Source: Candidatus Portiera aleyrodidarum (GTDB taxonomy: Bacteria > Pseudomonadota > Gammaproteobacteria > Johnevansiales > Johnevansiaceae). Taken from it: a stretch of DNA of 32,000 bases. The stretch lies in assembly GCF_000953395.1 (NCBI RefSeq), contig NZ_LN649236.1, forward strand, positions 60,001 to 92,000. The letters run 5' to 3'. Positions 2,051-32,000 of this stretch are shown here, piece by piece (positions within the stretch are counted from its first letter, which is position 1; the number at the start of each line of letters is the position of its first letter). A model generated the notes under the pieces. That model did not search any database and was not told the origin of the DNA. It saw only the letters and a list, made by a program, of their open reading frames with translations. The position numbers and the translations under genes were made by a program.

Positions 2051-2063
2051 AATTTTGTTATAA
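2043..2063. repeat. Perfect 10-1-10 palindrome TTATAACAAA-T-TTTGTTATAA
   Basis: Read directly: 2043..2052 is the exact reverse complement of 2054..2063. It lies in the divergent infC/proS spacer. Confidence 0.9.
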
Positions 2064-2330: not shown

Positions 2331-2363
2331 TAATACTACTTTGGTTACATAAAAGTAGTGTTA
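2331..2363. other. Stem-loop (12-bp stem including one G-T pair, 9-nt loop) upstream of proS
   Basis: TAATACTACTTT (2331..2342) pairs with AAAGTAGTGTTA (2352..2363); the loop is GGTTACATA. No U-tract follows on either strand, so it is not called a terminator. Confidence 0.5.
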
Positions 2364-2408
2364 ATAACTTTCATGTAAGGATTGTAGATTTAAGAACTTA
2401 AAATAATT

Positions 2409-4070: not shown

Positions 4071-4074
4071 TTTT

Positions 4075-4881: not shown

Positions 4882-4895
4882 TTATCCTTCTCTTT

Positions 4896-7384: not shown

Positions 7385-7395
7385 AATAAAAGTAT

Positions 7396-8610: not shown

Positions 8611-8657
8611 AGTATTCTCTTCTCTATAGTGTTATCATGATAAAATAAGAAAATTAA

Positions 8658-8686
8658 ATAATAATTTAAATCTATGTACTTTACAA
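8658..8686 (-). promoter_or_regulatory. Weak candidate promoter for argD (TTGTAA-N17-TATTAT)
   Basis: The minus strand reads TTGTAA (8686..8681), a 17-nt spacer, then TATTAT (8663..8658), about 45 nt upstream of the argD ATG. The match is non-consensus in AT-rich DNA. Confidence 0.25.
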
Positions 8687-8691
8687 GTTAT

Positions 8692-8700
8692 TGTTATAAT
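8692..8700 (+). promoter_or_regulatory. Candidate extended -10 promoter (TGtTATAAT) for valS
   Basis: TGTTATAAT lies at 8692..8700, 31 nt before the valS ATG. It is the same 9-mer as upstream of infC. There is no convincing -35. Confidence 0.35.
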
Positions 8701-8731
8701 TCATCAATCAAAACGCTATTATTGCAGTAAA

Positions 8732-11476
8732 ATGATAATGAATCATTTATATAAAAAATATAATCCAAATAAAATTGAAAATTATTGGTATAACAAATGG
8801 GAAAAAAATAAAAACTTTTTAAGTAATGTATCATGTATACCGTTTTCCATTATGATTCCTCCTCCTAATGTTAATGGAAACTTACATATGGGTCATGCTT
8901 TTGAATATACATTAATAGATACAATAATACGTTATAAACGTATGCAAGGTTATAATACATTATTGCAATTTGGTACTGATCATGCTGGTATTGCTACACA
9001 AATTCTAATTGATAATCATCTTGCTAATGATAAAATATCTCGTATTTATTTGGGCAGAAAATTATTTATAAAACAAACATTAAAATGGTGTAATAAAACT
9101 ATACCTAAAATTATTTTACAAATGAAACGTATAGGTATTAGTGTTGATTGGAAAAAAGAACGATTTACTATGGATTATGGTTTTTATCAAGCAGTACAAG
9201 AAGCTTTTATTAAATTATATAAAAAAGGATTAATTTATAGAGGAAAAAGATTAATTAATTGGGATCCAAAATTATTTACAGCTATATCTGATATAGAAGT
9301 TGAAAGTATTGAATCAAAGGGGATCTTATGGTATATCCGTTATCCTTTATTAAATAATATAAAATCTATTGATGGTAAAAATTATTTAATCGTTGCTACT
9401 ACACGTCCAGAAACTATTCTTGCAGATACTTGTATTGCTGTTAATCCTCAAGATAAGCGATATAAAAACTTAATAGGTAAATGTGTTAAAGTACCATTAA
9501 TAGGTCGTATATTACCAATTATATCAGATGAAGTTGTTGATAAAAATTTTGGCACAGGTTGTGTTAAAATTACACCAGCACATAATTTTATTGATTATAA
9601 AATTGGTAAACGTAATAATAGTCTATTAATAAATATATTTACTAATAATTTTAAAGTTCGTAAAAAAGCAGAAATATGTAAGTTTAAATCAGGTAAAGTT
9701 TTAAATTATAATTTTATAAAAACACCAAAATCATATGTTGGTATGTCTATAAAGTTATTGCGGAAAAATATAGTTAATGATTTATTAAAAAATAATTGTT
9801 TAGAAAAAAAAATAGAGAATTATATATTAATGTTACCTTGTGGAGATCGTTCAGGGGCAATTATTGAACCTTTACTTACAGATCAATGGTTTGTTTCTAT
9901 TAAAAACTTAGCGAAATTAGCTATCAAGGCAGTAAAAAACGGTAATATAAAGTTTATACCAAAAAATTATGAAAAAATATATATAAATTGGATGTATAAT
10001 ATTAAAGATTGGTGTATTTCTCGTCAGTTATGGTGGGGACATAGAATACCAGCTTGGTTTGATGATACTAATAAGATTTTTGTTGGACGTAATGAAGAAG
10101 AAATAAGAAATAAATATTCTATTAATTTAAAAACTAAATTATATCAAGATAATGATGTTTTAGATACTTGGTTTAGTTCCGGATTATGGACTTTTTCTAC
10201 TATTGGTTGGCCTCAAAATACATATGATTTTAAGTTATTTCATCCATCTAGTGTTTTAATTACTGGTTTTGATATTATCCCTTTTTGGGTATCTCGTATG
10301 ATAATGATGACACTTAAATTTATTAATGAAATACCTTTTAAAACAGTATACATACATGGTTTAATTAGAGATCAAACTGGACAAAAAATGTCGAAATCTA
10401 AAGGTAATGTTATAGATCCTATTGAATTAATAGATGGTATTGAAAAAAATAATTTAAATTCTGGTGCTGATGCTTTAAGATATACATATTTATCTATATC
10501 TTTACCAGGTAAAGATATAAATTTGGATCTAGGAAGATTAAAAGGTTATAGGAATTTTTGTAATAAGTTATGGAATGCAACAAGATATGTTATATCTAAA
10601 GCAGAAATTTATTATAATAATGATTCTAAAATTTTTTTTTATTGGGAAAATTTAAATTCAATCAATAGATTTATTATTTCCATTTTACAAAAAACTAAAA
10701 AACTTTTTTATAATTATTTAGAAGAATATCGTTTGGATTTAGCATCTCAAACTATTTATGAATTTGTATGGTATGATTTTTGTGATTGGTATTTAGAATT
10801 TTCGAAAATAATTTTAAATAGTAAATATATATTATTTAAATTTAGTACAATAAATACATTAATATATGTATTAAAAGAAATTTTATTATTATTACATCCT
10901 ATGATTCCTTTTATTACTGAAGAATTATGGAAAAATATAATGTTATTACAATATAAAAATAAAAAAACAATGATTATTAACCAATCTTGGCCTAATATAG
11001 ATAAAAATAAAATTGATGAAGACGCTATATATGATATAGAATTTATAAAAAAAATTATTATAAATATACGTTATATGCGTGCATCAATGAATATTGATAA
11101 TTTTAAAATAATACAAATTTTTTGTTCTAAAGTAAAAAATTTTTATAAAGAATTATTAAACCAATATAATTATTATATATGCAAATTAGCTAAGATTAAA
11201 AGAATAAAGTATTATGAACCAAATATTCATTGTTTATCAAAAAATATTGAAAATCTTATGATAATACATATACCAATAATAAAAGAAAAATATTATGATT
11301 TTAAATTTATTATCGAAGAATTGAAAAAACAAAAAAAACTAATTAAAATTTTAGAAAGTAAATTAAAAAATAAAAATTTTATTAATAAAGCTCCTAAATC
11401 TGTAATAACAAAAAATAAAATAAAATTAAAAAAAGCAAAAGATTTAATTAACTTAATTGGTAAACCAAACTTCTAA
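8732..11476 (+). CDS. valS: Valyl-tRNA synthetase
   Basis: 914 aa. It has the HIGH-type motif PPPNVNGNLHMGHAF, a CP1 editing-domain region, KMSKSKGNV and a C-terminal K-rich coiled coil. The start could be M1 or M3. Confidence 0.97.
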   Translation: MIMNHLYKKYNPNKIENYWYNKWEKNKNFLSNVSCIPFSIMIPPPNVNGNLHMGHAFEYTLIDTIIRYKRMQGYNTLLQFGTDHAGIATQILIDNHLANDKISRIYLGRKLFIKQTLKWCNKTIPKIILQMKRIGISVDWKKERFTMDYGFYQAVQEAFIKLYKKGLIYRGKRLINWDPKLFTAISDIEVESIESKGILWYIRYPLLNNIKSIDGKNYLIVATTRPETILADTCIAVNPQDKRYKNLIGKCVKVPLIGRILPIISDEVVDKNFGTGCVKITPAHNFIDYKIGKRNNSLLINIFTNNFKVRKKAEICKFKSGKVLNYNFIKTPKSYVGMSIKLLRKNIVNDLLKNNCLEKKIENYILMLPCGDRSGAIIEPLLTDQWFVSIKNLAKLAIKAVKNGNIKFIPKNYEKIYINWMYNIKDWCISRQLWWGHRIPAWFDDTNKIFVGRNEEEIRNKYSINLKTKLYQDNDVLDTWFSSGLWTFSTIGWPQNTYDFKLFHPSSVLITGFDIIPFWVSRMIMMTLKFINEIPFKTVYIHGLIRDQTGQKMSKSKGNVIDPIELIDGIEKNNLNSGADALRYTYLSISLPGKDINLDLGRLKGYRNFCNKLWNATRYVISKAEIYYNNDSKIFFYWENLNSINRFIISILQKTKKLFYNYLEEYRLDLASQTIYEFVWYDFCDWYLEFSKIILNSKYILFKFSTINTLIYVLKEILLLLHPMIPFITEELWKNIMLLQYKNKKTMIINQSWPNIDKNKIDEDAIYDIEFIKKIIINIRYMRASMNIDNFKIIQIFCSKVKNFYKELLNQYNYYICKLAKIKRIKYYEPNIHCLSKNIENLMIIHIPIIKEKYYDFKFIIEELKKQKKLIKILESKLKNKNFINKAPKSVITKNKIKLKKAKDLINLIGKPNF

Positions 11477-11522
11477 AGAAAAACTTTCCAACATAATATT
11501 TATAATTTTTTTTAAATGGTAA

Positions 11523-12509
<987 letters not shown>

Positions 12510-12529
<20 letters not shown>

Positions 12530-13697
12530 TTATAATTGATATATCCTTATCGCCTCTACCACTCATATTTACTATAATAATATTTTTCTTTGACAATCTG
12601 GGAGCTATTTTACTTACATAAGCTAATGCATGAGCAGATTCCAGAGCAGGTATTATACCTTCTAAATAGCAACATTTTTTAAAAGCATCTATAGCTTCCT
12701 TATCAGTTACAGATACATAATCAATACGCTTACATTTATAATAATAAGAATGTTCTGGACCTATACCTGGATAATCCATTCCTGCTGAAATTGAGTGGGC
12801 ATCTTTAATCTGACCATCTTTATTTTGTAAAATATAAGTCCTATTACCATGAATAACTCCAGGTACACCTCCAGTTAGGCTAGCTGCATGTTTACCTGTT
12901 TCAATCCCCTTTCCACCAGATTCCACTCCTATCATACGTATCTTATTATCATTTATCATTGGATAAAATAGCCCCATAGCATTAGATCCACCACCTATAC
13001 AAGCTACTAATATATCCGGAAGTTGGCCTTCAATGTTAATAATTTGTTCACGTACTTCATGACCAATTATAGATTGAAAATCACGAACCATAACAGGATA
13101 TGGATGTGGTCCAGCAACTGTACCTATAATATAAAATGTATTTTCTATATTATTTACCCAATCTCTTAATGCTTCATTCATAGCATCCTTTAATGTCCCT
13201 TTACCTGATTTTACAGGTACTACATTAGCACCTAATAAGTTCATTCGATCAACGTTGGTTTTTTGACGCTTCACGTCAGTAATTCCCATATAAATTACAC
13301 ATTTCATACCAAATCTTGCAGCTACAGTAGCTGTAGCTACTCCGTGCATACCTGCACCAGTTTCTGCAATAATACGATTTTTACCTAAACGTTTAGCTAA
13401 TAATATTTGACCAATACAATTATTTATTTTGTGTGCCCCTGTATGGTTTAAATCTTCTCTTTTGAAATATATTATACCTCCTCCTAATGATTGAGTAAAT
13501 CTATCAGCTAAATATAATGGACTTGATCTGCCTATATAATTTTTTTGATAATATAATAATTCATTTTTGAATGATTTATCTATTTTCGCGGATTGGTAAG
13601 TTTGTTCAAGCTCTATTATTAAAGGCATTAATGTTTCTGATACAAAACGACCACCAAAATCACCAAATAAACCTTTATCATTAGGTATAATATTCAT
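12510..13697 (-). CDS. trpB: Tryptophan synthase beta chain
   Basis: 395 aa. [16 protein letters not shown] (PLP lysine), GGGSNAMG and [15 protein letters not shown] are present; the sequence is highly conserved. Confidence 0.97.
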
Positions 13698-13807
13698 TAT
13701 TAATCCTTAGTATTTTTTATTACTTAATTTATATTTTATTATTTTTTATATTATTTACTAGTATTTGTTATTAAAACTATTGATTAACTTTTAAAATTTT
13801 ATTAATA

Positions 13808-14299
13808 ATGCAAATTAAAAAATTACCAATAATTATAAATTTTCAATATGAAATTAAGAATATAATTAAATTAATTATACCAAATGAAAATTTAATGTTT
13901 TCTTGGATTAATTTAGTTTTTCAACAACATTATAAAGATGATGTTATACGACATAAAGATGTTATAATACATAATGAATTGACTATACGTTTTGTTGAAT
14001 ATAAAGAAATTTATACACTTAATAGCTATTATCGTGGTATAAATAATTTAACAAATATACTTTCTTTTCCATATGAAGCTCCTCCTGGGATAAAAATACC
14101 TTTATTAGGTGAAATAGTAATAACACCAAATTTAATTTTATATGAATCATTAAAAAAAAATAAATCTTTTCTATCTCACTTGGCTCATATAATTATTCAT
14201 GGTTGTTTACATTTAATTGGTTATAATCATAATAATGAAAATGATGCTGCTAAAATGGAAAATATTGAATACTCAATATTAGAACAAATAAACTTATGA
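13808..14299 (+). CDS. ybeY: Endoribonuclease YbeY (16S rRNA 3'-end maturation)
   Basis: 163 aa. It has the zinc motif HGCLHLIGYNH (H-x3-H-x5-H) and NILSFP. Its stop overlaps the leuS start (ATGA). Confidence 0.9.
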   Translation: MQIKKLPIIINFQYEIKNIIKLIIPNENLMFSWINLVFQQHYKDDVIRHKDVIIHNELTIRFVEYKEIYTLNSYYRGINNLTNILSFPYEAPPGIKIPLLGEIVITPNLILYESLKKNKSFLSHLAHIIIHGCLHLIGYNHNNENDAAKMENIEYSILEQINL

Positions 14300-16872
14300 A
14301 AAATCCTTTTTATTACATAGATATTGAACGAGAAGCCCAGAAGTATTGGGAAGATAATAAATGTTTTGAAACAGTAGAAGATATGAATAAGGAAAAATTT
14401 TATTGTTTATGTATGTTTCCATATCCTAGCGGTAATCTACATATTGGGCATGTACGTAATTATACAATAGGAGATGTAATATCTCGTTTACAACGTATGC
14501 TAGGTAAAAATGTATTAAATCCTATTGGATGGGATGCTTTTGGTATGCCTGCAGAAAATGCTGCAAAAAAAAATATTGTTTCTCCTAATAAATGGACATA
14601 TACCAATATTGAATATATGCGGAAACAACTAAAAAGTTTAGGTTTTTCTTATAATTGGGATAGAGAAATAACAACATGTAATTTAAATTACTATCGTTGG
14701 GAACAATGGTTTTTTATTAAATTGATAGACCATGGTTTAATATATAAAACTAATGCAAGTGTTAATTGGGATCCGGTAGATAATACTATTTTAGCTAATG
14801 AGCAAGTAATAAATGGTATTGGATGGCGTTCTGGGGCAAAAGTAGAACGTAGAAAAATTCCAATATGGTTTTTTAAAATTACAGAATATGCTGAAGAACT
14901 TTTGAAATGTTTAGAAAATATTGATTGGCCAGAGTCTGTAAAAAAAATGCAAATAAATTGGATTGGTAAATCTAAAGGAATAGAAATTTTTTTCAAAGTT
15001 ATGGCTTCTGTTCCTAACTTTTTATCTAAATTAAAAGTTTTTACAACACGCCCAGATACCATATTAGGAGTTACTTATATAATATTAGCACCTGATCATC
15101 CTTTAGTTGAATTAGCTGCACAATATAATAAAAAATTAAATAAATTTTGTAAGAATTTTCGTATAGGTGGTAATTCTTCAGTAGAATTATTAAATAAGGA
15201 AAAAATTGGATTATATATAGGATATAAAGTATTACATCCAATTACCCATGAATATTTACCAATATATGTTTCTAATTTTATAATTATGGAATATGGTACA
15301 GGGGCTATAATGGGTGTTCCAGCTCATGATCAAAGAGATTGGGAATTTGCAATTAAGTACGGATTACCAATAAAAACTGTAATCACCGACTATAATGGTA
15401 ATATACCTGATATTTCTAAAAAAGCATATACGGAATATGGATTACTTATAAATTCAGGTATATTTAATAACTTAAATTTTTTTGAAGCTTTTGATTCTAT
15501 TAATAAATATATAAAAAAAATAAATTGTGGAGTTATTACAAACCATTTTAGGTTGCGTGATTGGGGTATTTCTAGGCAGAGATATTGGGGCACTCCTATT
15601 CCTATTAAATATGGTCCCAAAGGACAAACAGTCCCCCTTACTGATGAAGAATTACCTGTTTATTTACCTACAGAGGTAAGTTTTAATAGTAAATTTAATT
15701 TAAAAAAATTACCATCTTTTTACGATTTAGGAAATGGATGGGTTCGTGATACGGATACTTTTGATACTTTTATAGAATCCTCTTGGTATTACGCACGTTT
15801 TTGTTGTAATGATAATAAAAAATCAATGCTTGATGCAAGGGTAAACTATTGGTTACCAGTTGATATGTATATAGGTGGGATTGAACATGCAATTCTGCAT
15901 TTATTATATGCTAGGTTTTTCCATAAATTACTGCGTGATTTTGGCTTAGTTGAATGTGATGAACCTTTCAAAAAATTAATTACTCAAGGTATGGTTGTTA
16001 CACCTACCTACTATAGAGAAATACATGGTAAAAAAGAATGGTTTAATCCTTTAGATGTTAAGTTAAATAAAGATAAAAAAGCAACTTTAACTAAAGATGG
16101 TGGTACTGTTATAAAAAGCGGTATTGAAAAAATGTCTAAGTCTAAAAATAACGGTATTGATCCTAAAGTTCTAATTGATAAATTTGGTGCTGATACTTTA
16201 CGTTTCTTCATTATGTTTTCCGCACCTACTGAACAATCACTTATTTGGTCAGAAACTGGAATTATAGGTGCTAACCGATTTATTAAACGTTTATGGAATA
16301 TAGTTCATATACATATATCTAAATCTTATTCAGAAAATAATAAAATAAAAATATCATCATTAACACCTGAACAATTTATTTTATATCGAAAAACCCATAA
16401 AACAATAAAAAAAGCTACTGAAGATATGATTGGACGGCATACCTTTAATACTGTAATAGCTAAAGTAATGGAATTAACTAACTTAGTATCACGTTTTCTT
16501 GATTATAGTATCCAAGGATTAGCTGTAACTAGGGAAGCCTTGAAATCTATTATACTAATATTGGCTCCTATTGTCCCGCACATTACCCATATTTTATGGA
16601 AAAAAATGGGATACTCATATGCTGTTATTGATGCAAAATGGCCAAATTTTAATGAACCATGCTTATTAGGAAAATTAATTACCGTGGTGGTACAGATAAA
16701 TGGAAAATTACGTAAACTATTAAAATTACCTAGTAATTATGGTACTCAAAATAAAAAGCTTGCAAACGCTATTTTATCCTCTAAACAGATTAAAGGTTAC
16801 CTTATAGGGAAAAACCTTAAGAAAATTATTATCGTACCAGGAAAATTAATTAATATAGTCCTTAAACAATGA
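14296..16872 (+). CDS. leuS: Leucyl-tRNA synthetase
   Basis: 858 aa. PYPSGNLHIGHVRNY, a CP1 editing domain (TTRPDT) and KMSKSKNNG are present. Confidence 0.97.
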   Translation: MKNPFYYIDIEREAQKYWEDNKCFETVEDMNKEKFYCLCMFPYPSGNLHIGHVRNYTIGDVISRLQRMLGKNVLNPIGWDAFGMPAENAAKKNIVSPNKWTYTNIEYMRKQLKSLGFSYNWDREITTCNLNYYRWEQWFFIKLIDHGLIYKTNASVNWDPVDNTILANEQVINGIGWRSGAKVERRKIPIWFFKITEYAEELLKCLENIDWPESVKKMQINWIGKSKGIEIFFKVMASVPNFLSKLKVFTTRPDTILGVTYIILAPDHPLVELAAQYNKKLNKFCKNFRIGGNSSVELLNKEKIGLYIGYKVLHPITHEYLPIYVSNFIIMEYGTGAIMGVPAHDQRDWEFAIKYGLPIKTVITDYNGNIPDISKKAYTEYGLLINSGIFNNLNFFEAFDSINKYIKKINCGVITNHFRLRDWGISRQRYWGTPIPIKYGPKGQTVPLTDEELPVYLPTEVSFNSKFNLKKLPSFYDLGNGWVRDTDTFDTFIESSWYYARFCCNDNKKSMLDARVNYWLPVDMYIGGIEHAILHLLYARFFHKLLRDFGLVECDEPFKKLITQGMVVTPTYYREIHGKKEWFNPLDVKLNKDKKATLTKDGGTVIKSGIEKMSKSKNNGIDPKVLIDKFGADTLRFFIMFSAPTEQSLIWSETGIIGANRFIKRLWNIVHIHISKSYSENNKIKISSLTPEQFILYRKTHKTIKKATEDMIGRHTFNTVIAKVMELTNLVSRFLDYSIQGLAVTREALKSIILILAPIVPHITHILWKKMGYSYAVIDAKWPNFNEPCLLGKLITVVVQINGKLRKLLKLPSNYGTQNKKLANAILSSKQIKGYLIGKNLKKIIIVPGKLINIVLKQ

Positions 16873-17810
16873 AAATATTTTATTACCAGCTTTATGAGTA
16901 TTTAAATAATAGTTTATCTACCCTTTATATTATATCTGGATCTGAACCATTGTTACAGATGGAAGTATGTGACATGATTCGTGCAAAATTAAATTCATTG
17001 GGTAGGGTAGAGCGTAAAGTTATATATATAGAAAAAGAAAAAAGCTGGTGTAAAAAAATATTGGAAGTATCTACTAATTTATCACTTTTTGCCATAATCA
17101 AGCTCATAGAAATACAAATTATTAGACTTCCACCTAATATTCAATATATTAAAGTATATGCTAAGCTATTAATGAGTAATAATATTTTTTTATTGATTAG
17201 GACCCCACATCTATCTTATAAGATACAACAAAAAAAATGGTTTAAAGAACTAGAATCAATTAGCGTTTTTGTGCCTATTTTTAAAATAGAAGATATTTCT
17301 GGTTGGATTTTTAATCGAGCAGCAAAAAAACATCAAATCAGTCTTGATATAAATGCTATATCTATTTTAAAGCAGTGCTATGAAGGTAATTTAATTGCCT
17401 TGGATCAAGCTTTAGCCAACCTTAAATTAATATACCCTAACAATACTTTTTTAAAGGCACAGGATATATTAAATACTATTACTGATTATTCACGATTTAA
17501 TGTAATTGATTTGCTGGATGCTTGTATTTTAGGTGATACTAAACGCTGCATACATATTATTCAAGTATTGCAAATATCCGAATTTGATGTATCTATTATT
17601 TTATGGAATTTAATTAGTGAATTGCGTATCCTATTGTCGGCAGGTAGTAAAAAACTAAAACATAAGCTAGCACTACAAAGGTTATCTATTTATTCCATAC
17701 ATAATATGTTATTATTTGCTCAAAAATTAGACAATGCCATTAAAAATGAGGATAATATACCTATTTGGGTATCATTGACTAATTTAGCTTTAATGTTAGC
17801 AGGAGTCTAA
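16869..17810 (+). CDS. holA: DNA polymerase III delta subunit
   Basis: 313 aa. The match to HolA is weak but collinear (YIISGSEPLL..; CYEGNLIALDQALANLKLIYPN versus E. coli CYCYEGNLLALAQALERLSLLWP). It sits in the canonical position after leuS. The ATGA overlaps the leuS stop. Confidence 0.8.
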   Translation: MKIFYYQLYEYLNNSLSTLYIISGSEPLLQMEVCDMIRAKLNSLGRVERKVIYIEKEKSWCKKILEVSTNLSLFAIIKLIEIQIIRLPPNIQYIKVYAKLLMSNNIFLLIRTPHLSYKIQQKKWFKELESISVFVPIFKIEDISGWIFNRAAKKHQISLDINAISILKQCYEGNLIALDQALANLKLIYPNNTFLKAQDILNTITDYSRFNVIDLLDACILGDTKRCIHIIQVLQISEFDVSIILWNLISELRILLSAGSKKLKHKLALQRLSIYSIHNMLLFAQKLDNAIKNEDNIPIWVSLTNLALMLAGV

Positions 17811-19210
17811 ACCTTATGAATAGTAGTACCTGATGATGTAGCACAAGCTGCTTCGTGTACTGCTTCTGAAAGGGTAGGATGAGCAAAACATGTTAATGCC
17901 AAATCCTCAGCACTAGAACTAAATTCCATTGCAATAACACCCTGAGCAATTAATTCACTAGCATTTTGTCCCATTATATGTACACCTAAAATTCGATCAT
18001 TTACATCTGCAATTATTTTAACCATACCTTGTATTGCATTATTTGCCCTAGCTCTACCGCAATTAGCAAACGGAAAACTCCCTACTTTATAGTTAATACC
18101 TGCTGATTTAAGCTGCTGTTCATTTTTACCCACCCAAGCTATTTCGGGTCTTGTATAAATAACCCATGGAATAGTATCATAATTTATCTGTACATTATTA
18201 CCAGCAATAATTTCAGCTACCATAATACCTTCTTGAGCCGCTTTATGTGCTAACATAGGACCCCTTACAACGTCTCCTACAGCATAAATTCCTGATACAC
18301 TTGTTTTACATTGATTGTCAACTTTGATAAATCCTTTATCATCAATCTCTATCCCGCTATAAGGTGGTCTATAAGGTATCCTACCTATACAAACTATCAA
18401 CTTATCAAAAGTTAAGCTATGCTCACCAAAGGGATCCATAAAATTAACTTTAACTTCTTTATTTTTAATTTCGCTACCCATAATACGCACATTAAATTTA
18501 ATATTTAACCCTTGTTTTGTTAATATTTTTGATATTTCTTTAGCTAAAGTTTCATCTACAACTGGAAATAATTTATCTAACGCTTCCAATATAGTAACCT
18601 TACTGCCTAGTCTACTCCAAACTGAACCTAATTCTATCCCAATAATACCTGCTCCTATTATACCTAAACGATTAGGTACCTCCTGTAAACTTAATGCAGC
18701 TGCAGAGTCTATTATTGTATCTCCATTTAATGGTACCTGATTAATGCTGCTAGGAATAGATCCTGAAGCAATAATAATATTATTAGCTTTAAAAATACTC
18801 TTTTTTCCGTTATGAGACAATTCTACTTTTTTTTCATTTAAAATCTTACCAGTTCCTTTCAATACTATAACCCCATTAGCTCTAAACAAAGCATCAATTC
18901 CATCAATTAAACTATAAACAATTTTATTTTTATGCCTGATCATATTTTTAATATCGATACTAATTTTATCAATCTTAATACCTAATTCTTCGAATTTATC
19001 CCTAGCCTCAATAAACTTATGTGATATTTCTAATAATGTTTTTGAAGGGATACATCCAACATTTAAGCAAGTACCTCCATAAATCATTCTTCCATCTTTA
19101 ATCCATTTTTCAACACAAGCAGTTTTTAGTCCTAATTGCGCCGCTCTTATAGCTGCAACGTAACCAGCTGGACCAGCACCTATAACAATTACATCAAAAT
19201 TAGCTTCCAT
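17807..19210 (-). CDS. lpdA: Dihydrolipoyl dehydrogenase (E3)
   Basis: 467 aa. It has the FAD motif VIGAGPAGY, the redox disulfide GGTCLNVGCIPSK, the NAD motif GAGIIGIE and the C-terminal HAHPTLSE. It follows sucB. Confidence 0.93.
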   Translation of the reverse strand: MEANFDVIVIGAGPAGYVAAIRAAQLGLKTACVEKWIKDGRMIYGGTCLNVGCIPSKTLLEISHKFIEARDKFEELGIKIDKISIDIKNMIRHKNKIVYSLIDGIDALFRANGVIVLKGTGKILNEKKVELSHNGKKSIFKANNIIIASGSIPSSINQVPLNGDTIIDSAAALSLQEVPNRLGIIGAGIIGIELGSVWSRLGSKVTILEALDKLFPVVDETLAKEISKILTKQGLNIKFNVRIMGSEIKNKEVKVNFMDPFGEHSLTFDKLIVCIGRIPYRPPYSGIEIDDKGFIKVDNQCKTSVSGIYAVGDVVRGPMLAHKAAQEGIMVAEIIAGNNVQINYDTIPWVIYTRPEIAWVGKNEQQLKSAGINYKVGSFPFANCGRARANNAIQGMVKIIADVNDRILGVHIMGQNASELIAQGVIAMEFSSSAEDLALTCFAHPTLSEAVHEAACATSSGTTIHKV

Positions 19211-19230
19211 ATTTATTTCTCTCGTTACAT

Positions 19231-20463
19231 TTAAATATTTAATATAAACCGTATAGGGTTTTCTAAAAGCTCCTTAACTAAATTTAAAAATTGTACTGCA
19301 TCCTTACCATCAAGTATACGATGATCATAAGACAACGCTAAATACATCATCGGACGTATAACTATTTCTCCATTTAAAACTACTGGACGTTTTTGAATTT
19401 TGTGCATGCCCAGAATAGCCGTTTGAGGCGGGTTAATAATAGGAGTAGAAAAAAGAGATCCAAATACCCCTCCATTGCTTATAGTAAAAGTTCCACCAGT
19501 AATTTCTTTAATACTTAATTTTCCATTAATACCACGTTGCCTGAAATCCATAATTAATTTCTCTATATCTACTATTTCCATAGAATCAGTATTTCTTAAT
19601 ATTGGAACAACTAAACCCCTATTTGTAGAAACTGCTATTCCAATATCTTGATAATTATGATAAACAATTTCTTTAGCATCAATAAAGGCATTAACTTTAT
19701 TAAAACGTTTTAGGGCTACAGTGCAGGCTTTTACAAAAAAACCCATTAATCCTAGCTTAGTACCATGTATTTCTTTAAATAGCTCTCTATATTGTACGCG
19801 TATCTCTATTATATTACTCATATCTACTTCATTATAAGTAGTTAACAATGCAGCATTTTTTTGCGCTTTTACTATACGCTTAGCCATCGTCTGACGTAAC
19901 CGACTCATTGGTACCCTTTTTTCTCCGACTTCTTTTAGACTACGTTGAACATCTTCTTTTAGACTACGTTGAACATCTTCTTTTAGACTACGTTGAACAT
20001 CTTCTTTTAGACTACGTTGAACATCTTCTTTTAGACTACGTTGAACATCTTCTTTTAGACTACGTTGAACATCTTCTTTTAGACTACGTTGAACATCTTC
20101 TTTTAGACTACGTTGAACATCTTCTTTTAGTATACGTCCCCCTTTTCCAGTACCAATAATTGCTTTAACATCTATACTATTATTAGCCATCATTTTGCGT
20201 GCCGATGGTGAAATATCTTCTTTGTTATCTACTATAATACCTAGCAATTGCTCTGATTTGCATGTTTTACCTACTGGTATCTTTATATCTTTAAGAATCC
20301 CTTCCGCTGGTGACACAACCTCTAGCAATACTTTATCAGTTTCTACTTCAACAATAATTTCATATCGTGAAATTTTATCCCCAGGTTTTTTATGCCAAGT
20401 AGCAACTGTACCTTCATTTACCGATTCAGGAAAGCTAGGAGCTTTTATATCTATATATTTAAT
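19231..20463 (-). CDS. sucB: 2-oxoglutarate dehydrogenase E2 (dihydrolipoamide succinyltransferase), probable ATT start, with internal 8x octapeptide repeat
   Basis: The catalytic core is RVPMSRLRQ...[10 protein letters not shown] and the PSBD is [24 protein letters not shown]. The lipoyl domain ([23 protein letters not shown]...[12 protein letters not shown]) lies upstream of the first canonical start used by the ORF track (TTG 20328), in the same open frame. AAGGA (20476..20472) plus 8 nt leads to ATT (20463..20461), giving about 410 aa. Confidence 0.92.
19930..20130 (-). repeat. Perfect tandem repeat, 24-bp unit x 8 plus a 9-nt partial copy, in frame within sucB
   Basis: The plus-strand unit TTCTTTTAGACTACGTTGAACATC starts at 19930, 19954, 19978, 20002, 20026, 20050, 20074 and 20098. 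All copies are identical, and 20122..20130 is a partial copy. It encodes (KEDVQRSL)x8. Confidence 0.97.
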
Positions 20464-20486
20464 CTTAATTATCCTTTTTATTAGCT

Positions 20487-23123
20487 TTAAAGAAAGGCTT
20501 CTTTTATTAAATTAGCCTGCTGTTTCATATGTACATCAATATAACCAGATGCTGGTGCTGCTGCTGCAGTACGACCTATAAACTTTAGCTTAAGCTTCTT
20601 ATTTAAATAGTACTTAATTTGATACCAAGCTCCTTGATTTTTAGGTTCTTCTTGACACCATATAATATGTTCACACTTAGAGTAACTAGATAAGTTTTCT
20701 ATAATACTTTTTTCAGGAAAAGGATAAAGCTGTTCTATTCGTAAAATAGCAGTATCCTTAATATTATTTGCTTTACGATAAGCAAATAAATCGTAATATA
20801 CTTTACCTGATGTAATTATAATTCTTTTTACTATATCTGGATCAATATTCTCCGTTTCACCAATCACCGTTTTAAAACTTCCATAAGATAAATCTTCCAA
20901 ACTAGATTTAGCATATTTATGCCGCAATAAACTTTTTGGTTGCATCAATATTAATGGTTTACGTAATTTCCGTCTTACATGACTACGTATTAAATGAAAT
21001 AGTTGGGAAGGATTTGTAGGTATACATAATTGCATATTTTGTTCAGCACATAACTGAATAAATCGTTCAATACGTGCAGAAGAATGCTCTGGACCTTGAC
21101 CTTCATAACCATGGGGGAGTAATAAAGTTAGACCGCATAAACTTCCCCACTTAGTTTCACCAGAAGATATAAATTGATCAATCACTACCTGGGCTCCATT
21201 AGCAAAGTCTCCAAACTGAGCTTCCCAAGCTACGAACATATTTTGTGATGTAGTAGAATAACCATATTCAAAAGCAAGCACAGCTTCTTCTGAAAGAATA
21301 GAATCTACTATAGTAAACTTAGGTTGCCCTTTTTTTATATGTTGCATAGGTATCCATACTGATCCATCTTTTTGATTATGTATTACTGCATGACGATGAG
21401 AGAAAGTTCCTCTTCCTGTATCTTGACCTGTTATACGAATGGCATAACCTTCATCTAATAAAGTAGCATATGATAACATCTCCGCAAAACCCCAATTGAT
21501 ATTACTACTAACCATACGACGATCTTCGTAAATTTTAGCAACTGTACTTTGAACTTCGACTTCGATACCCAAACCCAAATGGCACATTTTTCCCGCTAAT
21601 GAATGCATACGCTTCATTTCAAATGAGGTATACTCATCATACGAATCATAATACTTATACATAATAACACTTGATTTTTTATATGAATTATTAGCATCAT
21701 AATCTAAATTATGGCGATATAAATACACCATATTTTTAACCTCCTTCTTTGATATTAAACCTTGTTTTAATAAATATTTTGAATAAATTTCCCGTGTAGT
21801 TGGATGATTTTTTATTTTTTTATACATAATTGGTTGTGTTATTGATGGTTCATCTGATTCATGATGTCCCCTACGACGATAACATATCATATCAATTACC
21901 ACATCTTTTTTGAATTTATTCCTATAATCAACTGCTAATTGGGTTACATATTGAACAGCTTCTGGATCATCTCCATTTACATGTAAAACAGGATATTGAA
22001 ACATTTTTGCAATATCACTACAATATTTAGTAGATCGTGCATTGTGTCTATAAGTAGTAAAACCTATCTGATTATTAATAATAATATGTAAAGTACCCCC
22101 CGTATTATATTCCTTTATTTTTGACATTTGTAATGTTTCCATTACCACACCTTGTCCAGAAAATGCTGTATCACCATGTATAACAATAGGTAATACTTTT
22201 GTTACTTTTGTCATATCATTAATATAATCTTGTCTCGCACGAACCGCTCCTTCTATTACTGGATAAATAATTTCTAGATGTGATGGATTAAATGCTAATT
22301 TCAAATGCACCCCACCACCTTTTGTCATTATTTTTGAACTAAAACCTTGATGATATTTAACATCACCAGAACCTGATTCATATATTTGTTTTCCTTCAAA
22401 TTCCTTTATTATATCTGCTGGGCTCTTACCCAAAATATTAACTAATACATTTATACGTCCTCTGTGAGCCATACCCATAAAAATTTCTTTAATACTATAA
22501 TTACCAGAACGTTGAATTAATTCATATAACATAGGAATTAAAGTTTCTCCACCCTCTATACCAAAACGTTTAGTACCAGGATATTTACTAGATAAATAAT
22601 TTTCTAATCCTTCAGCTGCAGTAATTAATTCTAGAATATGCAAACTTATTTTTTTTGTTTGTGAGTAGTTGTTACGTACAGATTCCAAACTTTGCTCTAG
22701 CCACACTTTTTCTTCATTATTAATAAGATGCATAAATTCACATCCTATTGATCTACAGTAAGTTATATCCAAAACTTCAATAATTTCTTTTAATGTTGCT
22801 TTATTTTTACCAACCCCAGTATAAAAGACTTTATTTATATCTTCTTTATTCAATTCGTATAATGACAATTGAAGCGCAACCTTATTCTTACCTGGGTTTA
22901 TAGGGTTTATATTTGCCTTTATATGCCCCATATAACGATAAGCGTTAATAAGTTGCAACACGATCATTTGTTTTTTTATATTTTCTTTTTTTTGAACAAT
23001 GCATTCTTTTTTACTAATATAGTCAAAATATTGACGCCATTCTTCAGTAACCTTACCTTTATGTTTATGGTATTGTTCGTATAGTTCTTCTAAATAACTA
23101 ACATTATCTAAGGCTATTTGCAT
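20487..23123 (-). CDS. sucA: 2-oxoglutarate dehydrogenase E1 component
   Basis: 878 aa. The N-terminus [18 protein letters not shown].. is SucA-like. The ThDP region [11 protein letters not shown]..., [18 protein letters not shown] and the C-terminus are collinear. The start overlaps the gltX 3' end by 20 nt. Confidence 0.95.
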
Positions 23124-24606
23124 ATTTGTTTTGATATTCCTTTATTATTTTATTTTCCTGTTCTAGTGTTATTCCTCCTAATATATTTATTGCCTGCTTT
23201 ATACGTATAATCGTTATATCTTTACCAATAATTACTATAGTATCAATTACCGATGTAGAAATTAATCTTCCATTAATTGCAATAAAAATTGGAGCTAGTA
23301 TTGTTTTCATTTTTATTTTAAAATGGTTAGATAATTGTTTAACCTTATATAGTATAGTTGCCTTGTCCCATTTTTCTATATATTCTAACTGCAACCATAA
23401 AAATTTAAGTACTTTAATTTGCATTGTGTTTTTCAAAGCAATAACTTTAAAATCTTCCGCTTTTAATTTAGGTAATCCAGAAAAAAAATGTTCAGATAAA
23501 GGAATAATATCAGTTAAAATTTTTATACGAGGTTTAATTGATGGTAAAATCTTATATATATAGTCTTTAGCCCATTCATACATAACCTTAATTAACTTTT
23601 TATCTTCCATTGATCGAATATAAATACCATTTAACCAAGTCAATTTGTCTAAATCAAATATTGGACCTCCTAAAGATATACTCTTAATATCAAATTTAGA
23701 TTGCATATCTTCTATAGAAAACTTAGTATTTTTAATACCACCAATACTACCTAAGTAATTGATTATTGTTTGGGGTAAATAACCCATTTTACGATAATAT
23801 TCAATTGAATTATTTTGTTTGCGCTTAGATAGTTTTGATCTATCTGGATTACGTAATAATGGTAAGTGACAAAATTCTGGTGTTGGCCAGCCTAAATATT
23901 CATAAATCAACTTATGTTTTGGAGTAGAATTTATCCATTCTTCACCCCTTATTACATTAGTAATCCCCATCAAGTAATCGTCTACTACATTAGCTAAATG
24001 ATAAGTAGGTGTTCCGTCAGATTTTATTAAAATTTGTGAATCAACCTGATCCCAATTCATTTTAATACTACCCCTTAATACATCATAAAATACGCATATT
24101 CCTTCCTTAGGAACCTTAAGCCGTATTACATAAGGCCAATTGTTTTTTTTACGCAATTTTAATTCTTTATAATCTAACTGTAAATCTTTTTCTTTTAATG
24201 CTTTATCAAATTTACCTTTCCGCAATTTTTCTAGTTCTTCACTAGTTCGATAACATTTAAATACCTTACCTGAATTAATTAATTTCTCAACATATTTATT
24301 ATAGATACTATTACGTTCGCTTTGACGATAAGGTCCGAAATTTCCTCCTATATCCGGTCCTTCATCCCATTGAATGCCTAACCAATGTAATAATTCTAAA
24401 ATTTTTTTTTCAAATTTACTTTTTGATCGCAATCTATCTGTATCTTCAATACGAAGAATTACTTTTCCATTATTAATACGAGCAAAATAAAAATTTAATA
24501 AAGCAATATATGCTGTACCAATATGCGGTTCTCCTGTAGGTGAAGGGGCAATACGTGTGCGTAGAGGTGTTTTAAACGTTTTATCCAATTTTCGCCTCTT
24601 TTTCAC
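23104..24606 (-). CDS. gltX: Glutamyl-tRNA synthetase
   Basis: RIAPSPTGEPHIGTA (HIGH-type) and KLSKR are present. The ORF-track start is GTG at 24606. An in-frame TTG at 24588..24586, preceded by AAGAGG plus 6 nt, is an equally good or better start. Either start overlaps the deaD 3' end. Confidence 0.92.
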   Translation of the reverse strand: MKKRRKLDKTFKTPLRTRIAPSPTGEPHIGTAYIALLNFYFARINNGKVILRIEDTDRLRSKSKFEKKILELLHWLGIQWDEGPDIGGNFGPYRQSERNSIYNKYVEKLINSGKVFKCYRTSEELEKLRKGKFDKALKEKDLQLDYKELKLRKKNNWPYVIRLKVPKEGICVFYDVLRGSIKMNWDQVDSQILIKSDGTPTYHLANVVDDYLMGITNVIRGEEWINSTPKHKLIYEYLGWPTPEFCHLPLLRNPDRSKLSKRKQNNSIEYYRKMGYLPQTIINYLGSIGGIKNTKFSIEDMQSKFDIKSISLGGPIFDLDKLTWLNGIYIRSMEDKKLIKVMYEWAKDYIYKILPSIKPRIKILTDIIPLSEHFFSGLPKLKAEDFKVIALKNTMQIKVLKFLWLQLEYIEKWDKATILYKVKQLSNHFKIKMKTILAPIFIAINGRLISTSVIDTIVIIGKDITIIRIKQAINILGGITLEQENKIIKEYQNKYANSLR

Positions 24607-25858
24607 GTGCTAAATGTGCAAATACTGCTGCTAATTCTATCGGATTAAAACCTTTATCTACTAATTCTTGTACTAAATCCCGTTGATTATAATTTCTAGA
24701 AGCTAATATTGCAGTTGCACGATTTTTAAAAATACGATCACGATGATTTATTAATGCCTTTTCATTTGGTATTTCCATCTTTTGTCCAATAGCTTTTTCT
24801 AACCATTTTATTTTTCGTAATTCACTTCTATTTACAAAAGTAATAGCTATACCTGTACGTCCTGCACGACCTGTACGACCAATACGATGAATGTATGCTT
24901 CTTTATCATTTGGTATATCATAATTAATTACATGAGTAATACTAGGTAAATCAAGTCCTCTTGCAGCTATATCTGTAGCAACTAATATATTAACTTTACC
25001 TAATTTTAATCTAGATACCGTTCTGTCACGTAACTTTTGATTTAAATCACCAGAAAGTGCTGCTGCTGATATACTACGTGTAGTTAATTTTTCCACTAAC
25101 TTACTACAATAAGCTCTAGTACGTACAAATACAATTGCTGCATCAATTTTATAAATTTCTATAATACGCGCTAATGCTTCAAATTTAGCATTATTTTCAA
25201 TTTTACATAATCTTTGAATAATAGTTACTTTTTTATATTCAATATGAATTTTTACAGGATTAACTAAATAACGATTAACTATTGGTTCTATTTCGAATGG
25301 TACCGTTGCAGAAAAAAACACCCTTTGGGTTGTTATTGGCATCTTTTTAAGTATTATTTCTACATCTTCTATAAACCCCATACGTAACATTTCATCAGCT
25401 TCATCCAGTACTAGTGCCTTTAGATGTTTTAAATTCATAGAACCTCTTGTTAAATGATCTATCACACGTCCTGGAGTACCTACTACAATATGAGCACCTT
25501 TATTTAAACCACGTACTTGATCTCTATATTCTTGACCACCACATATAGTTATTAATTCAATATTTTTTACATATTTCCCATATCTAATAAAATTTAAAGA
25601 TACTTGTTGTGCAAGTTCCCGAGTAGGTGCTAATACTAATACCTGAGTATGTTTAATATTAATATCTATTCTAGTTAATAAAGGTAATGCAAACGCCGCT
25701 GTTTTCCCTGTTCCTGTTTGAGCTTTACCTAATAAATCACGTCCTTCAAGTAACCAAGGAATTGTTTTCAGTTGTACAGTGGAAGGATTTTCATAACCCT
25801 TAACTTTAATAGACTTTAAAACCGCTGGCAATAAAGCAAATTTTTTAAAATTAGACAT
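24581..25858 (-). CDS. deaD: DEAD-box ATP-dependent RNA helicase, DeaD/CsdA-like, lacking most of the C-terminal extension
   Basis: 425 aa. It has the Q-motif region, AQTGTGKT, PTRELA, the DEADEMLRMGFIEDVE stretch (the E. coli DeaD version, as I recall it, is nearly identical), SAT and HRIGRTGRAGR. AAGGTG lies 4 nt before the ATG. E. coli DeaD is about 629 aa. Confidence 0.88.
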   Translation of the reverse strand: MSNFKKFALLPAVLKSIKVKGYENPSTVQLKTIPWLLEGRDLLGKAQTGTGKTAAFALPLLTRIDINIKHTQVLVLAPTRELAQQVSLNFIRYGKYVKNIELITICGGQEYRDQVRGLNKGAHIVVGTPGRVIDHLTRGSMNLKHLKALVLDEADEMLRMGFIEDVEIILKKMPITTQRVFFSATVPFEIEPIVNRYLVNPVKIHIEYKKVTIIQRLCKIENNAKFEALARIIEIYKIDAAIVFVRTRAYCSKLVEKLTTRSISAAALSGDLNQKLRDRTVSRLKLGKVNILVATDIAARGLDLPSITHVINYDIPNDKEAYIHRIGRTGRAGRTGIAITFVNRSELRKIKWLEKAIGQKMEIPNEKALINHRDRIFKNRATAILASRNYNQRDLVQELVDKGFNPIELAAVFAHLAREKEAKIG

Positions 25859-25882
25859 TTTACACCTTATTACTTTCTAATA

Positions 25883-26000
25883 GCCTGACGATAACCTACT
25901 CTTACATAAGGAGAACCTCATACTACCATCGGCGTTAGGTGATTTAACTTCTGAGTTCGGAATGGTATCAGGTTGGTCCCACCAACTATAATCGTCAAGC
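25883..26000 (-). rRNA. rrf: 5S ribosomal RNA
   Basis: The reverse complement reads GCTTGACGATTATAGTTGGTGGGACCAACCTGATACCATTCCGAACTCAGAAGTTAAATCACCTAACGCCGATGGTAGTATGAGG...GAGTAGGTTATCGTCAGGC. It is collinear with E. coli 5S, and the terminal helix I pairs. Ends are +/- 2 nt. Confidence 0.92.
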
Positions 26001-26029
26001 TAAATTTTTCAAACTCTTTTAGGTACTAT

Positions 26030-28913
<2,884 letters not shown>

Positions 28914-28934
28914 ATAACCTTTAATTCTTTTTTT

Positions 28935-29007
28935 TGGGTCTGGGCAGAATTGAACTACCGACCTCACCCTTATCAGGAGTGCGCTCTTCCATCTGAGCTA
29001 CAGACCC
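28935..29007 (-). tRNA. tRNA-Ile (anticodon GAT), CCA not encoded
   Basis: The reverse complement is GGGTCTGTAGCTCAGATGGAAGAGCGCACTCCTGATAAGGGTGAGGTCGGTAGTTCAATTCTGCCCAGACCCA. It folds as a 73-nt cloverleaf (7-bp acceptor, GCTC/GAGC D stem, CTGATAA anticodon loop, TTCAATT T loop). It is followed by AAAAAA rather than CCA. Confidence 0.95.
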
Positions 29008-29051
29008 ACTACCTTTGGTAAGTACTTCTTTCATCATAAAGACTATCTTTT

Positions 29052-30593
<1,542 letters not shown>

Positions 30594-30650
30594 TTTTATC
30601 CTTTTTTTGTCTTTATATGAAGAACAAAGTACCTACTTAATTTCTTTTTT

Positions 30651-30679
30651 ATTATATTAAATATATATTTTTTTGTCAA
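30651..30679 (-). promoter_or_regulatory. Consensus sigma70-type promoter for the rRNA operon (TTGACA-N17-TATAAT)
   Basis: The minus strand reads TTGACA (30679..30674), an exact 17-nt spacer AAAAAATATATATTTAA, then TATAAT (30656..30651). It lies about 58 nt upstream of the mature 16S 5' end. The -35 contains the trpS TGA stop (30678..30676). An A/T tract lies upstream (UP-like). Confidence 0.65.
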
Positions 30680-31641
30680 ATTATATTATTTTTTAATTCA
30701 GATATTCTTTTTTTTGCTTTATCTCGTGCTATATATTCTCCTTTTTTTAGTATTTTCTTAATATATGTATAATCTTTTAAAAGTCTTAAATAAATATCTC
30801 TTGGATAACGAAGTGATTCATTAATATAATCAAAAACTATTTTTTTTACTTCACTCCAACTTATACCTTCCTTATATCTATTTTTTAAACAATAAATTTC
30901 TTCTTTATTTGCAAATGCTGAGAATATTTTCAATAAAGTACAATTTTTTATATCTTTAGGATCACTTGCTTTAGTTGAATTAGTTTTTATTTTACGAATC
31001 ATCTTATATAATGTTTTTTCTGTACAAAATAAAGGAATAGTATTACCATAACTTTTAGACATTTTTCGTCCATCTAAACCATTTATAATTTTATTTCTTT
31101 TATCTAATTTTATTTTTGGTAAAACCCAATATTTTCCATACATACTATTAAATTTTAAAGCAATATCTCTTGTAATTTCTATATGTTGAATTTGATCTTT
31201 TCCTACTAAAACCAAATTGGCATTAAATAATAAAATATCCGCTGCCATAAGTAAAGGATAACTATATAATCCCATATTAATATTATTTTTGCCAGTTATT
31301 AATAATGACTTATAAGCATGAGCTCTATTTAATAAACCTTTGGAACAAATACAACATAACAACCACATTAATTCAGTAATTTCTGGTATAGCTGATTGAC
31401 AATATAAAATTACATTCTTTGGATCTAATCCAATTGCTAACCAAGCTGCTAACATTTCTAATCTATACCGTTTTATTTTTTTAGGATTTTTTAATTTTAT
31501 TAAAGCATGTAAATCTGCAATAAAACAATATGTTTTTATATTTCTATTTCTACTTACCTCAATTGTCGGACGCAATGCTCCAATATAATTTCCGATATGA
31601 GGAGCTCCATTAGGAGTAATCCCACTAATTACAGTAATCAT
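30676..31641 (-). CDS. trpS: Tryptophanyl-tRNA synthetase
   Basis: 321 aa. [17 protein letters not shown] (HIGH-type), GKDQIQHIE and KMSKS are present. Confidence 0.93.
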
Positions 31642-31781
31642 TTAGATTCACGATAACAAACATGTCTACGTATTATTGGATCATATTTTTTTAATTCTAA
31701 TTTTTTCGGATTAGTTCTTTTATAAGTTGAATAACAATGACCTGTACCTTTAGTGGAAACTAACTTTATTTTCTTTCTCAC
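31638..31781 (-). CDS. rpmG: 50S ribosomal protein L33 (missed by the ORF track, 47 aa, GTG start)
   Basis: The minus strand reads GGAGA plus 7 nt, then GTG AGA AAG AAA ATA AAG TTA GTT TCC ACT AAA GGT ACA GGT CAT... This translates to (M)[46 protein letters not shown]. Compare E. coli L33 ..[45 protein letters not shown]. The TGA stop overlaps the trpS ATG (ATGA). Confidence 0.9.
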
Positions 31782-31804
31782 AACCAATTCTCCAATATAT
31801 TTTT

Positions 31805-32000
31805 TTAATATTTTTTTAATATTTTTTCTATACCATATTTATCTATTATACGCATACCTTTAGTAGAAATACGTAATTTTATATGCCGTTTCTCATTCTT
31901 TATCCAAAACCGATGTTTTTGTAAATTTGGCATAAATCTTCTACGTGTTTTCCTATTTGAATGAGAAACATTATTACCTTGCATTGGCTTTTTATAAGTT
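31805..32000 (-). CDS. rpmB: 50S ribosomal protein L28 (5' end outside the window)
   Basis: Minus-strand translation is ..[64 protein letters not shown]. This matches L28 (..GNNRSHA.N.TKRRF.PNL..HRFW...EKR...LR.S.KGMR.IDK.GI). The stop TAA is at 31807..31805. Confidence 0.9.

Follow-up and report, generated by a model that had tools for sequence, protein, structure and literature searches.

Obligate insect symbionts such as the "Candidatus Portiera aleyrodidarum" lineage of Trialeurodes vaporariorum (TV) are textbook cases of genomic stasis. Intragenic variable-number tandem repeats (VNTRs), which are attributed to slipped-strand mispairing, are a known class in bacteria. In Portiera, tandem repeats have been described as rare (PMC3673631), and 10 of them were counted in the TV genome, 8 of the 10 overlapping genes (PMC7821994). 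The subject here is a 32,000-nt stretch of the genome of the TV-BCN symbiont, positions 60,001 to 92,000 of contig NZ_LN649236.1 (assembly GCF_000953395.1), which is called the window in the following. It contains sucB, the gene for the E2 subunit of the 2-oxoglutarate dehydrogenase complex (E2o), and inside sucB is a perfect in-frame array of eight 24-bp units, located at the boundary between the PSBD (peripheral-subunit-binding domain; E3_binding in Pfam) and the catalytic core. The sequence is public, and the array has been counted anonymously among the 10 repeats mentioned (PMC7821994). No description of the array, of the difference between strains outlined below, or of a second array in the Portiera of Aleurodicus dispersus was found in the literature, and the three Portiera genome papers (PMC7821994, PMC5322561, PMC3673631) do not name sucB.

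The array shares with bacterial intragenic VNTRs the perfect head-to-tail units, a unit length that is a multiple of 3, the absence from sister lineages, a short direct repeat that brackets it, and an apparent copy-number difference, seen at the level of assemblies, between otherwise identical isolates. It differs from them by its location in an enzyme of core metabolism, in an obligate symbiont with a genome of 281 kb, instead of a surface or contingency gene, and by its unit, which appears to be a structural helix of a folded domain and not a low-complexity sequence. Single alpha-helix spacers of the ER/K type are similar in that the array is 50% charged with a net charge of 0, contains opposite-charge pairs at i+4, and is predicted to form an isolated helix; its charge density is lower, however, and it carries a Val/Leu stripe at i+4 that comes from the PSBD core.

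A further comparison is that with the Ala/Pro-rich linkers of E2 subunits, which normally comprise 25 to 30 residues and determine how far the shell is separated from the core (PMC6270654). The array has the same position between PSBD and core, is similarly long or longer, and would determine in a like manner how far the peripheral modules are from the core. Unlike these linkers, it contains Lys, Glu, Asp, Arg, Val, and Leu without Ala or Pro, it is predicted as a continuous helix joined to the second PSBD helix instead of an extended flexible chain, and it would be the product of a recent duplication, whereas the linkers are ancestral. Eukaryotic E2o, finally, has no PSBD and uses the MRPS36 adaptor (PMC9974300). 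This resembles the E2o of the A. dispersus symbiont, in which a linker joins the lipoyl domain to the core without a PSBD, but not the SucB of the window, which keeps a good PSBD; an adaptor, for which no search was made, is not known from Portiera.

The explanation favored here, with a probability of roughly 60%, is that the array is a young, slippage-generated, in-frame intragenic minisatellite that is tolerated at an interdomain site and is perhaps useful as a replacement spacer. As a slippage repeat it is ordinary, though in an unusual location, and it does not amount to a novel type of system; its setting and the fact that such arrays recur make it of moderate interest.

A perfect in-frame repeat in sucB

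A sequence-only reading of the window had reported eight perfect 24-bp copies followed by a 9-nt partial copy, and a match scan, shuffled sequences, and Tandem Repeats Finder all confirmed this. The 24-mer TTCTTTTAGACTACGTTGAACATC was present in eight head-to-tail copies with 0 mismatches at 19930..20121 (Table 1). No match to TTCTTTTAGACTACGTTGAACATC occurred elsewhere in the 32-kb window, even with 3 mismatches permitted, and 100 dinucleotide-preserving shuffles yielded 0 matches. Tandem Repeats Finder, applied to the window, placed an array at 19929..20137 with a period of 24, 8.7 copies, and a score of 404, while the runner-up array scored 117. Adjoining the eight units is TTCTTTTAG, the 9-nt perfect partial copy, with an imperfect continuation to position 20137. 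The array is a genuine perfect in-frame 24-bp repeat, far beyond chance.

The unit of 24 nt keeps sucB in frame, as had been stated. The minus-strand translation reads ...GTGKGGRIL(KEDVQRSL)x8... and continues without a stop or frameshift down to the sucB stop codon at 19231. A frameshift, which the sequence-only reading had named as a sign of a pseudogene, is absent from the assembled sequence, the frame being open over 416 codons. Residue numbers of the array and the domains follow the 410-residue numbering of SucB used in that reading.

The unit as a domain helix at the site of a lost linker

A PSBD of about 35 residues consists of two helices and a connecting loop. In the SucB of the window, the Pfam E3_binding match stops at residue 117, which is within the first unit. 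A 17-residue segment with the unit aligned column for column to GTGVGGRLTREDVEKHL of the PSBD structures of Escherichia coli E2o (1BBL, 1BAL, 1W4H, and 2CYU), and the E-values of the PSBD alignments to 1W4H, 1BBL, and 2CYU were about 2e-7. Positions 20122..20137 at the array edge encode ...R-I-L-K-E, the natural start of helix 2. As judged from these alignments, the KEDVQRSL unit is helix 2 of the PSBD, in agreement with the earlier assignment to the final helix of this domain. The contact with E3 is made by helix 1 (PMC9974300), so that a duplication of helix 2 would spare the E3-contact helix.

The usual feature of E2o at this site, a flexible linker of about 25 to 30 residues from PSBD to core, was not found in the window, and the repeat fills its position. 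In the free-living Halomonadaceae Kushneria and Vreelandella, 35 to 55 Ala/Pro/Ser/Gly-rich residues are located between helix 2 and the core start E(K/Q)RVPM(S/T)RL. In every Portiera examined, this linker is cut to about 4 residues, ...RS(I/L/N)(N/K)E(V/I)G(E/V)KRV. The comparison of the single-copy Portiera with the Halomonadaceae is also in line with the earlier remark that the usual linker had been lost.

Because the unit of eight codons is positioned exactly at the PSBD-core boundary, which normally holds a long linker, its insertion should have been tolerated. This former long flexible linker would have shrunk to about 4 residues in the course of genome reduction. The insertion should leave the catalytic and lipoyl domains as well as helix 1, which contacts E3, unaffected, and the extra length is by default regarded as neutral or slightly beneficial.

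Origin and age of the array

The closest sampled relative of the TV symbiont, a Portiera recovered from a Logan assembly (L002, SRR12131186; about 94% DNA identity), contains one unit in the context ATA CTA AAA GAA GAT GTT CAA CGT AGT ATT AAT GAA GTC. One unit each is also present in the Portiera of Singhiella simplex (L003) and Bemisia tabaci (L005). A single copy in close and distant Portiera alike indicates that the array is the derived state, and this result answers the comparison of sister orthologues that had been proposed as a check.

The array would accordingly be younger than the separation of the TV lineage from the closest relative sampled. It would have been generated when short direct repeats of the AAAGAA(G) type on both sides of the final PSBD helix underwent replication slippage or were unequally aligned, and repeated gain and loss of units would keep it homogeneous.

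Several details weigh against such a simple course, in which slippage itself is a postulated and not an observed event. The downstream junction of the array reads AGT CTA AAA GAA versus AGT ATT AA(T/G) GAA in the single-copy relatives. The 10-mer CTAAAAGAAG, which brackets one unit, had been proposed as the seed of the slippage, but its downstream counterpart in these relatives is ATTAATGAAG or ATTAAGGAAG; 7 of the 10 positions are alike, with a perfect GAAG. The 10-mer is a property of the 8.4-copy array and not ancestral. At the terminal junction, 3 of the 6 bases are changed, every one of them towards the upstream copy. All junctions including the terminal one read CTA AAA, while ATT AAT would be expected from simple slippage at the ancestral microhomologies. 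From these sequences, an extra step would be needed, either prior substitutions that made the 10-mer or a conversion-like homogenization by repeated misalignment. A hairpin favoring slippage was also considered and rejected: no DNA hairpin was found in the array, the minimum free energies of three units being only −2.1 and −0.8 kcal/mol for the two strands.

The age of the array is only loosely bounded by the identity of its units. Zero divergence had been taken as a sign of recent expansion on the premise of a fast-evolving genome. This premise is not supported: among the six Portiera lineages that were tabulated, that of TV ranks second-slowest, with dS/t (synonymous changes) of about 1.0e−9 and dN/t (nonsynonymous changes) of about 1.4e−10 per site per year (PMC7821994). 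At these published rates, the first substitution in 192 nt would by our estimate be expected after roughly 5 to 15 million years. With such a slow substitution rate, perfect identity limits the age of the array to millions of years. A recent origin is better supported by the single copy in the 94%-identical L002 and by a possible difference of four versus eight units within the TV symbiont than by zero divergence.

Copy number in different assemblies

The genome of another T. vaporariorum symbiont, CP004358, comes from a separate study and contains four units instead of the eight in the window. Compared to the window, it had no differing base in 1..19929, 20025..25123, and 20676..32000, so that the array is the sole difference in 32 kb. 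Two mismatches listed in BLAST rows against CP004358 were rejected as differences; they stem from alignment overlap within the repeat, and string comparison gave 0 differences over 1..19929. The 96-bp difference in the array makes up 60% of the 159-bp gap in genome size (280,822 versus 280,663 bp). Both genomes have been called "almost 100% identical" (PMC5322561).

Existence of the array and number of its units have to be considered separately. Logan contigs (k = 31) of the runs SRR34431284, SRR34431285, and SRR7414909 had flanks with 100% identity to the window over 5 kb per side, and all ended exactly 30 nt (k − 1) inside the array, at window position 20101 on the sucA side and 19958 on the lpdA side. 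A single unit gives no such de Bruijn branch, so at least two copies must be real; these contigs establish this minimum and cannot count units. Together with TV-BCN and CP004358, the unit-to-unit junction is supported in five datasets, and this refutes the suspicion voiced in the sequence-only reading that the whole array might be an assembly artefact. A scan of JGI metagenomes for the two-unit junction pattern gave 0 hits.

The number of units is less certain. CP004358 was built with Velvet and MIRA from 2 x 76-nt reads (PMC3673631). Reads of 76 nt are too short to cross perfect repeats of 105 or 201 bp, and a collapse of the array in CP004358 is therefore possible. The count of eight comes from the TV-BCN assembly alone and is an assembly-level count, although its 454 reads could span 201 bp. 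Both points weaken the case for true variation. Alternatively, the array may be real but the number of units wrong in one or both assemblies, so that the T. vaporariorum symbiont has one fixed number and the locus does not vary. This has to be taken seriously, if at somewhat less than even odds. It would agree with the inability of the CP004358 reads to span the array, with the break of all short-read Logan assemblies at the array, and with the identity of both genomes over the remainder of the 32 kb, in which a real difference would stand alone. On the other hand, TV-BCN has about 90x coverage in 454 and about 1,500x in Illumina reads (PMC5322561), and 454 reads able to span 201 bp make eight units plausible for that isolate. 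Moreover, instability is inherent to perfect minisatellites, and it would be no surprise if isolates differed.

The copy number may be polymorphic among isolates of the T. vaporariorum symbiont. The VNTR-like behavior suggested from the sequence holds insofar as two otherwise identical assemblies differ by eight versus four units, but the 76-nt reads behind the smaller number leave the claim in part unsupported. If the difference is true, the array would be the fastest-changing locus seen in the window, within a core enzyme of the tricarboxylic acid cycle, and could directly serve as a marker to type T. vaporariorum populations.

Predicted structure of the array

Structure prediction had been proposed to see if the array is a continuous helix, and the AlphaFold models indicate that this may be the case. 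The full-length model, based on an alignment of 39 sequences, contained one continuous helix at residues 113 to 174. In its PSBD, a helix at residues 86 to 95 was followed by the next helix starting at residue 113. A 119-residue fragment modeled without an alignment formed a helix from residue 107 to 182 with a predicted local distance difference test (pLDDT) score of 85 to 91. Two points reduce the weight of these models. The pLDDT of the array helix in the full-length model was 38 to 58 compared to about 90 in the lipoyl domain, and AlphaFold readily assigns helices to charged repeats.

The composition of the unit is compatible with such a helix. Half of its residues are charged with a net charge of 0; E2, R6, and E2′ form a ladder at i+4 and V4 and L8 a stripe at i+4, with two i+4 charge pairs per 8 residues. 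A coiled coil was set aside because the hydrophobic moment peaks at 90 and not at 100 degrees, and this strict spacing of 4 is unlike what heptad or hendecad packing should give.

The array is accordingly predicted as a single continuous helix that extends helix 2 of the PSBD by 56 residues. If fully helical, the seven extra units would add about 84 Å. In pyruvate dehydrogenase, the linkers maintain a gap of 75 to 90 Å between core and shell (PMC6270654), and the predicted helix length would be close to this value. Helix 2 would become a long, half-charged helix by which the lipoyl and E3-binding module is moved outward from the 24-mer core.

A second array and PSBD erosion in other Portiera

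In the sucB of the A. dispersus symbiont AD-CAI (L004, LN649255), an in-frame array of 18 bp x 9.3 with 99% matches was found at 3241..3408 of L004. It encodes KEIYSN KEIYSN (KEISSN)x7 between the lipoyl domain (residues 4 to 76) and the catalytic domain (138 to 365) and adds about 56 residues. AAAGAA brackets this array as well, and its end, directly 5′ of GTCGGAGAAAAAAGG, falls on the nucleotide at which the TV array also ends. Both arrays are therefore alike in being perfect or near-perfect, in frame, in the same gene, and of similar added length. They differ in that the KEISSN/KEIYSN unit is Ser/Asn-rich and not obviously helical. The AD-CAI unit looks like the N-terminal flank of a lost PSBD (KEDIYS in the Singhiella symbiont) fused to the (S)NKE|VGEK junction, and this array is of independent origin. 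An independent array that ends at the same nucleotide indicates that slippage may recur at this boundary.

No Pfam E3_binding match was found in the SucB of AD-CAI, which is missing the whole PSBD. Bacterial E2o has been described as always keeping the PSBD, unlike eukaryotic E2o (PMC9974300), so that the AD-CAI SucB would be an exception worth noting. The PSBD seems to be eroded in other lineages, too: E3_binding scored 20.8 bits in the Singhiella symbiont, which is under the Pfam threshold, and was not detected in the Bemisia symbiont. Instead, both have a long spacer, rich in Lys and Glu, that separates the lipoyl domain from what remains of the PSBD. One long spacer between lipoyl domain and core is thus present in four of the five Portiera lineages compared (Bemisia, about 55 residues; Singhiella, about 35; TV, 56; Aleurodicus, about 60), while the sucB of L002 appears intact with its one unit and essentially no long linker anywhere.

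These spacers could also be the product of selection. After the flexible Ala/Pro linkers had been erased by genome reduction, slippage products that restore the distance would have been favored, the copy number would be selected, and it might tune the 2-oxoglutarate dehydrogenase complex. We consider this adaptive origin rather unlikely. Two lineages with independent arrays at the same nucleotide boundary and about the same added length (56 residues in TV, about 56 in AD-CAI) would fit to it, as would the retention of one long spacer in four of five lineages and the similarity of the roughly 84 Å of 56 helical residues to the 75 to 90 Å gap in pyruvate dehydrogenase (PMC6270654), which is our own comparison. 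The closest relative L002, however, has an intact-looking sucB without a long spacer, which makes the spacer not obligatory. Neutral in-frame insertions also survive best at interdomain boundaries, and the convergence does not discriminate between both possibilities. Moreover, a stiff helix is not equal to a flexible Ala/Pro linker. The broader proposal that different Portiera lineages repeatedly rebuilt the spacer between arm and core from minisatellites at one hotspot 5′ of the catalytic domain, with a copy number that is selected and still varying, is held to be unlikely. If linker regeneration were true nevertheless, a tiny "static" symbiont genome would possess a tunable metabolic locus. 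With respect to E2 architecture, the arrays, together with the PSBD lost in the A. dispersus symbiont, represent a natural experiment on the extent to which the modular swinging arm can be rebuilt: a helix copied from a domain in one case and a Ser/Asn repeat in the other have taken the place of the linker, with a complex that presumably still works.

A protein search with the Aleurodicus SucB for orthologs from Aleurodicus floccissimus or other Aleurodicinae gave nothing new, and a search with a short query of array plus core added one Portiera-like fragment, P0149/L089 (Logan SRR25685069). Its contig starts at 1..30 with TAA|GTCGGAGAAAAAAGG, breaking where both arrays end, and TAA replaces the GAA of the others. 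L089 may represent a third lineage in which sucB is disrupted or contains a further repeat.

Integrity and start codon of sucB

The features of sucB and its neighbors are listed in Table 1. The identification of the gene as sucB was correct: its protein was above both NCBIfam equivalog cut-offs, with 507.2 for NF004309 (cut-off 449) and 495.2 for TIGR01347 (cut-off 378.65). The order of the domains is lipoyl, PSBD, and catalytic domain, as expected for E2o, and ETDKV and SYDHRILDG are both visible in the translation. The catalytic domain starts 2 codons past the array end. Directly adjacent, sucA and lpdA are intact, on the same strand as sucB, and both above their equivalog cut-offs.

Table 1 Features of the sucB region in the window
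Feature	Position	Strand	Remarks
lpdA (E3), directly downstream of sucB	17807..19210	−	TIGR01350, 507 bits; partner recruited by the PSBD
sucB (E2o)	19231..20481	−	Noncanonical start: RefSeq, ATA at 20481 (416 aa); possible alternatives, ATT at 20469 or 20463
E2 acyltransferase catalytic domain, residues 181–407	19243..19923	−	DHRILDG motif; Pfam PF00198, 270 bits; PDB 1C4T and 1SCZ, E-value 6e−88
Eight perfect 24-bp units	19930..20121	−	Each codes GAT GTT CAA CGT AGT CTA AAA GAA; (KEDVQRSL)x8, residues 113–176 (410-aa numbering)
PSBD (E3_binding), residues 84–117	20113..20214	−	Helix 2 corresponds to first repeat unit; Pfam PF02817, 45 bits (cut-off 23.7)
Array 5′ edge (gene orientation)	20122..20137	−	Perfect partial copy CTA AAA GAA at 20130..20122; CGT ATA before it, resembling CGT AGT of the unit
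Lipoyl domain, residues 5–77	20233..20451	−	ETDK lipoyl-lysine motif; Pfam PF00364, 61 bits; PDB 1PMR and 1GHJ
sucA (E1o), directly upstream of sucB	20487..23123	−	NCBIfam NF006914, 1222 bits

No ATG, GTG, or TTG was found upstream of the sucB lipoyl domain (20328..20481). The 52 codons before the first TTG showed 2 synonymous and 0 nonsynonymous changes compared to L002, and with this conservation they are evidently translated, as far as sequence comparison can tell, from a noncanonical start. The missing canonical start codon explains the inconsistent lengths of the sucB product in public records, 329, 361, 384, and 416 residues, the original GenBank entry being a truncated call of 361 residues. 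This is an annotation problem of one gene with several recorded lengths. The sequence-only reading had the correct frame, but its length of 410 residues assumed the ATT start at 20463, while RefSeq uses ATA at 20481.

A gene on its way to being lost, with the array as a symptom of relaxed constraint, is another possible explanation of the repeat. In favor of this would be the absence of ATG, GTG, and TTG starts before the lipoyl domain, the PSBD that is below the threshold in the Singhiella symbiont, undetectable in that of Bemisia, and deleted in that of Aleurodicus, and the TAA directly before the catalytic domain in L089. However, the frame in the window is open over all 416 codons, all three domains score strongly with intact catalytic DHR..DG and lipoyl DK motifs, and the lipoyl codons before the first TTG show only the 2 synonymous changes. 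Since sucA and lpdA are also intact and all Portiera compared show high conservation of the catalytic domain, decay of sucB is unlikely on the basis of these sequences, and as the cause of the array, it is very improbable.

Other features of the window

The G+C content of the window was 21 to 32% outside the rRNA operon. This complete operon (25883..30596, minus strand) encodes 16S rRNA, tRNA-Ile(GAT), 23S rRNA, and 5S rRNA and explains a jump in G+C to 0.46. For infC, encoding IF3 (1425..1931, minus strand), a product of 168 residues was called, while the longest frame with a canonical start has only 112 residues. This difference suggests that the usual non-ATG start of infC may be retained in the window. 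Two further repeats were identical in CP004358. Inside the proS frame (3128..3228) is an AT-rich, imperfect repeat (51 bp x 1.9), and near rpmB and rpmG (31797..31827) is a perfect one (11 bp x 2.8; ATATTTTTTTA).

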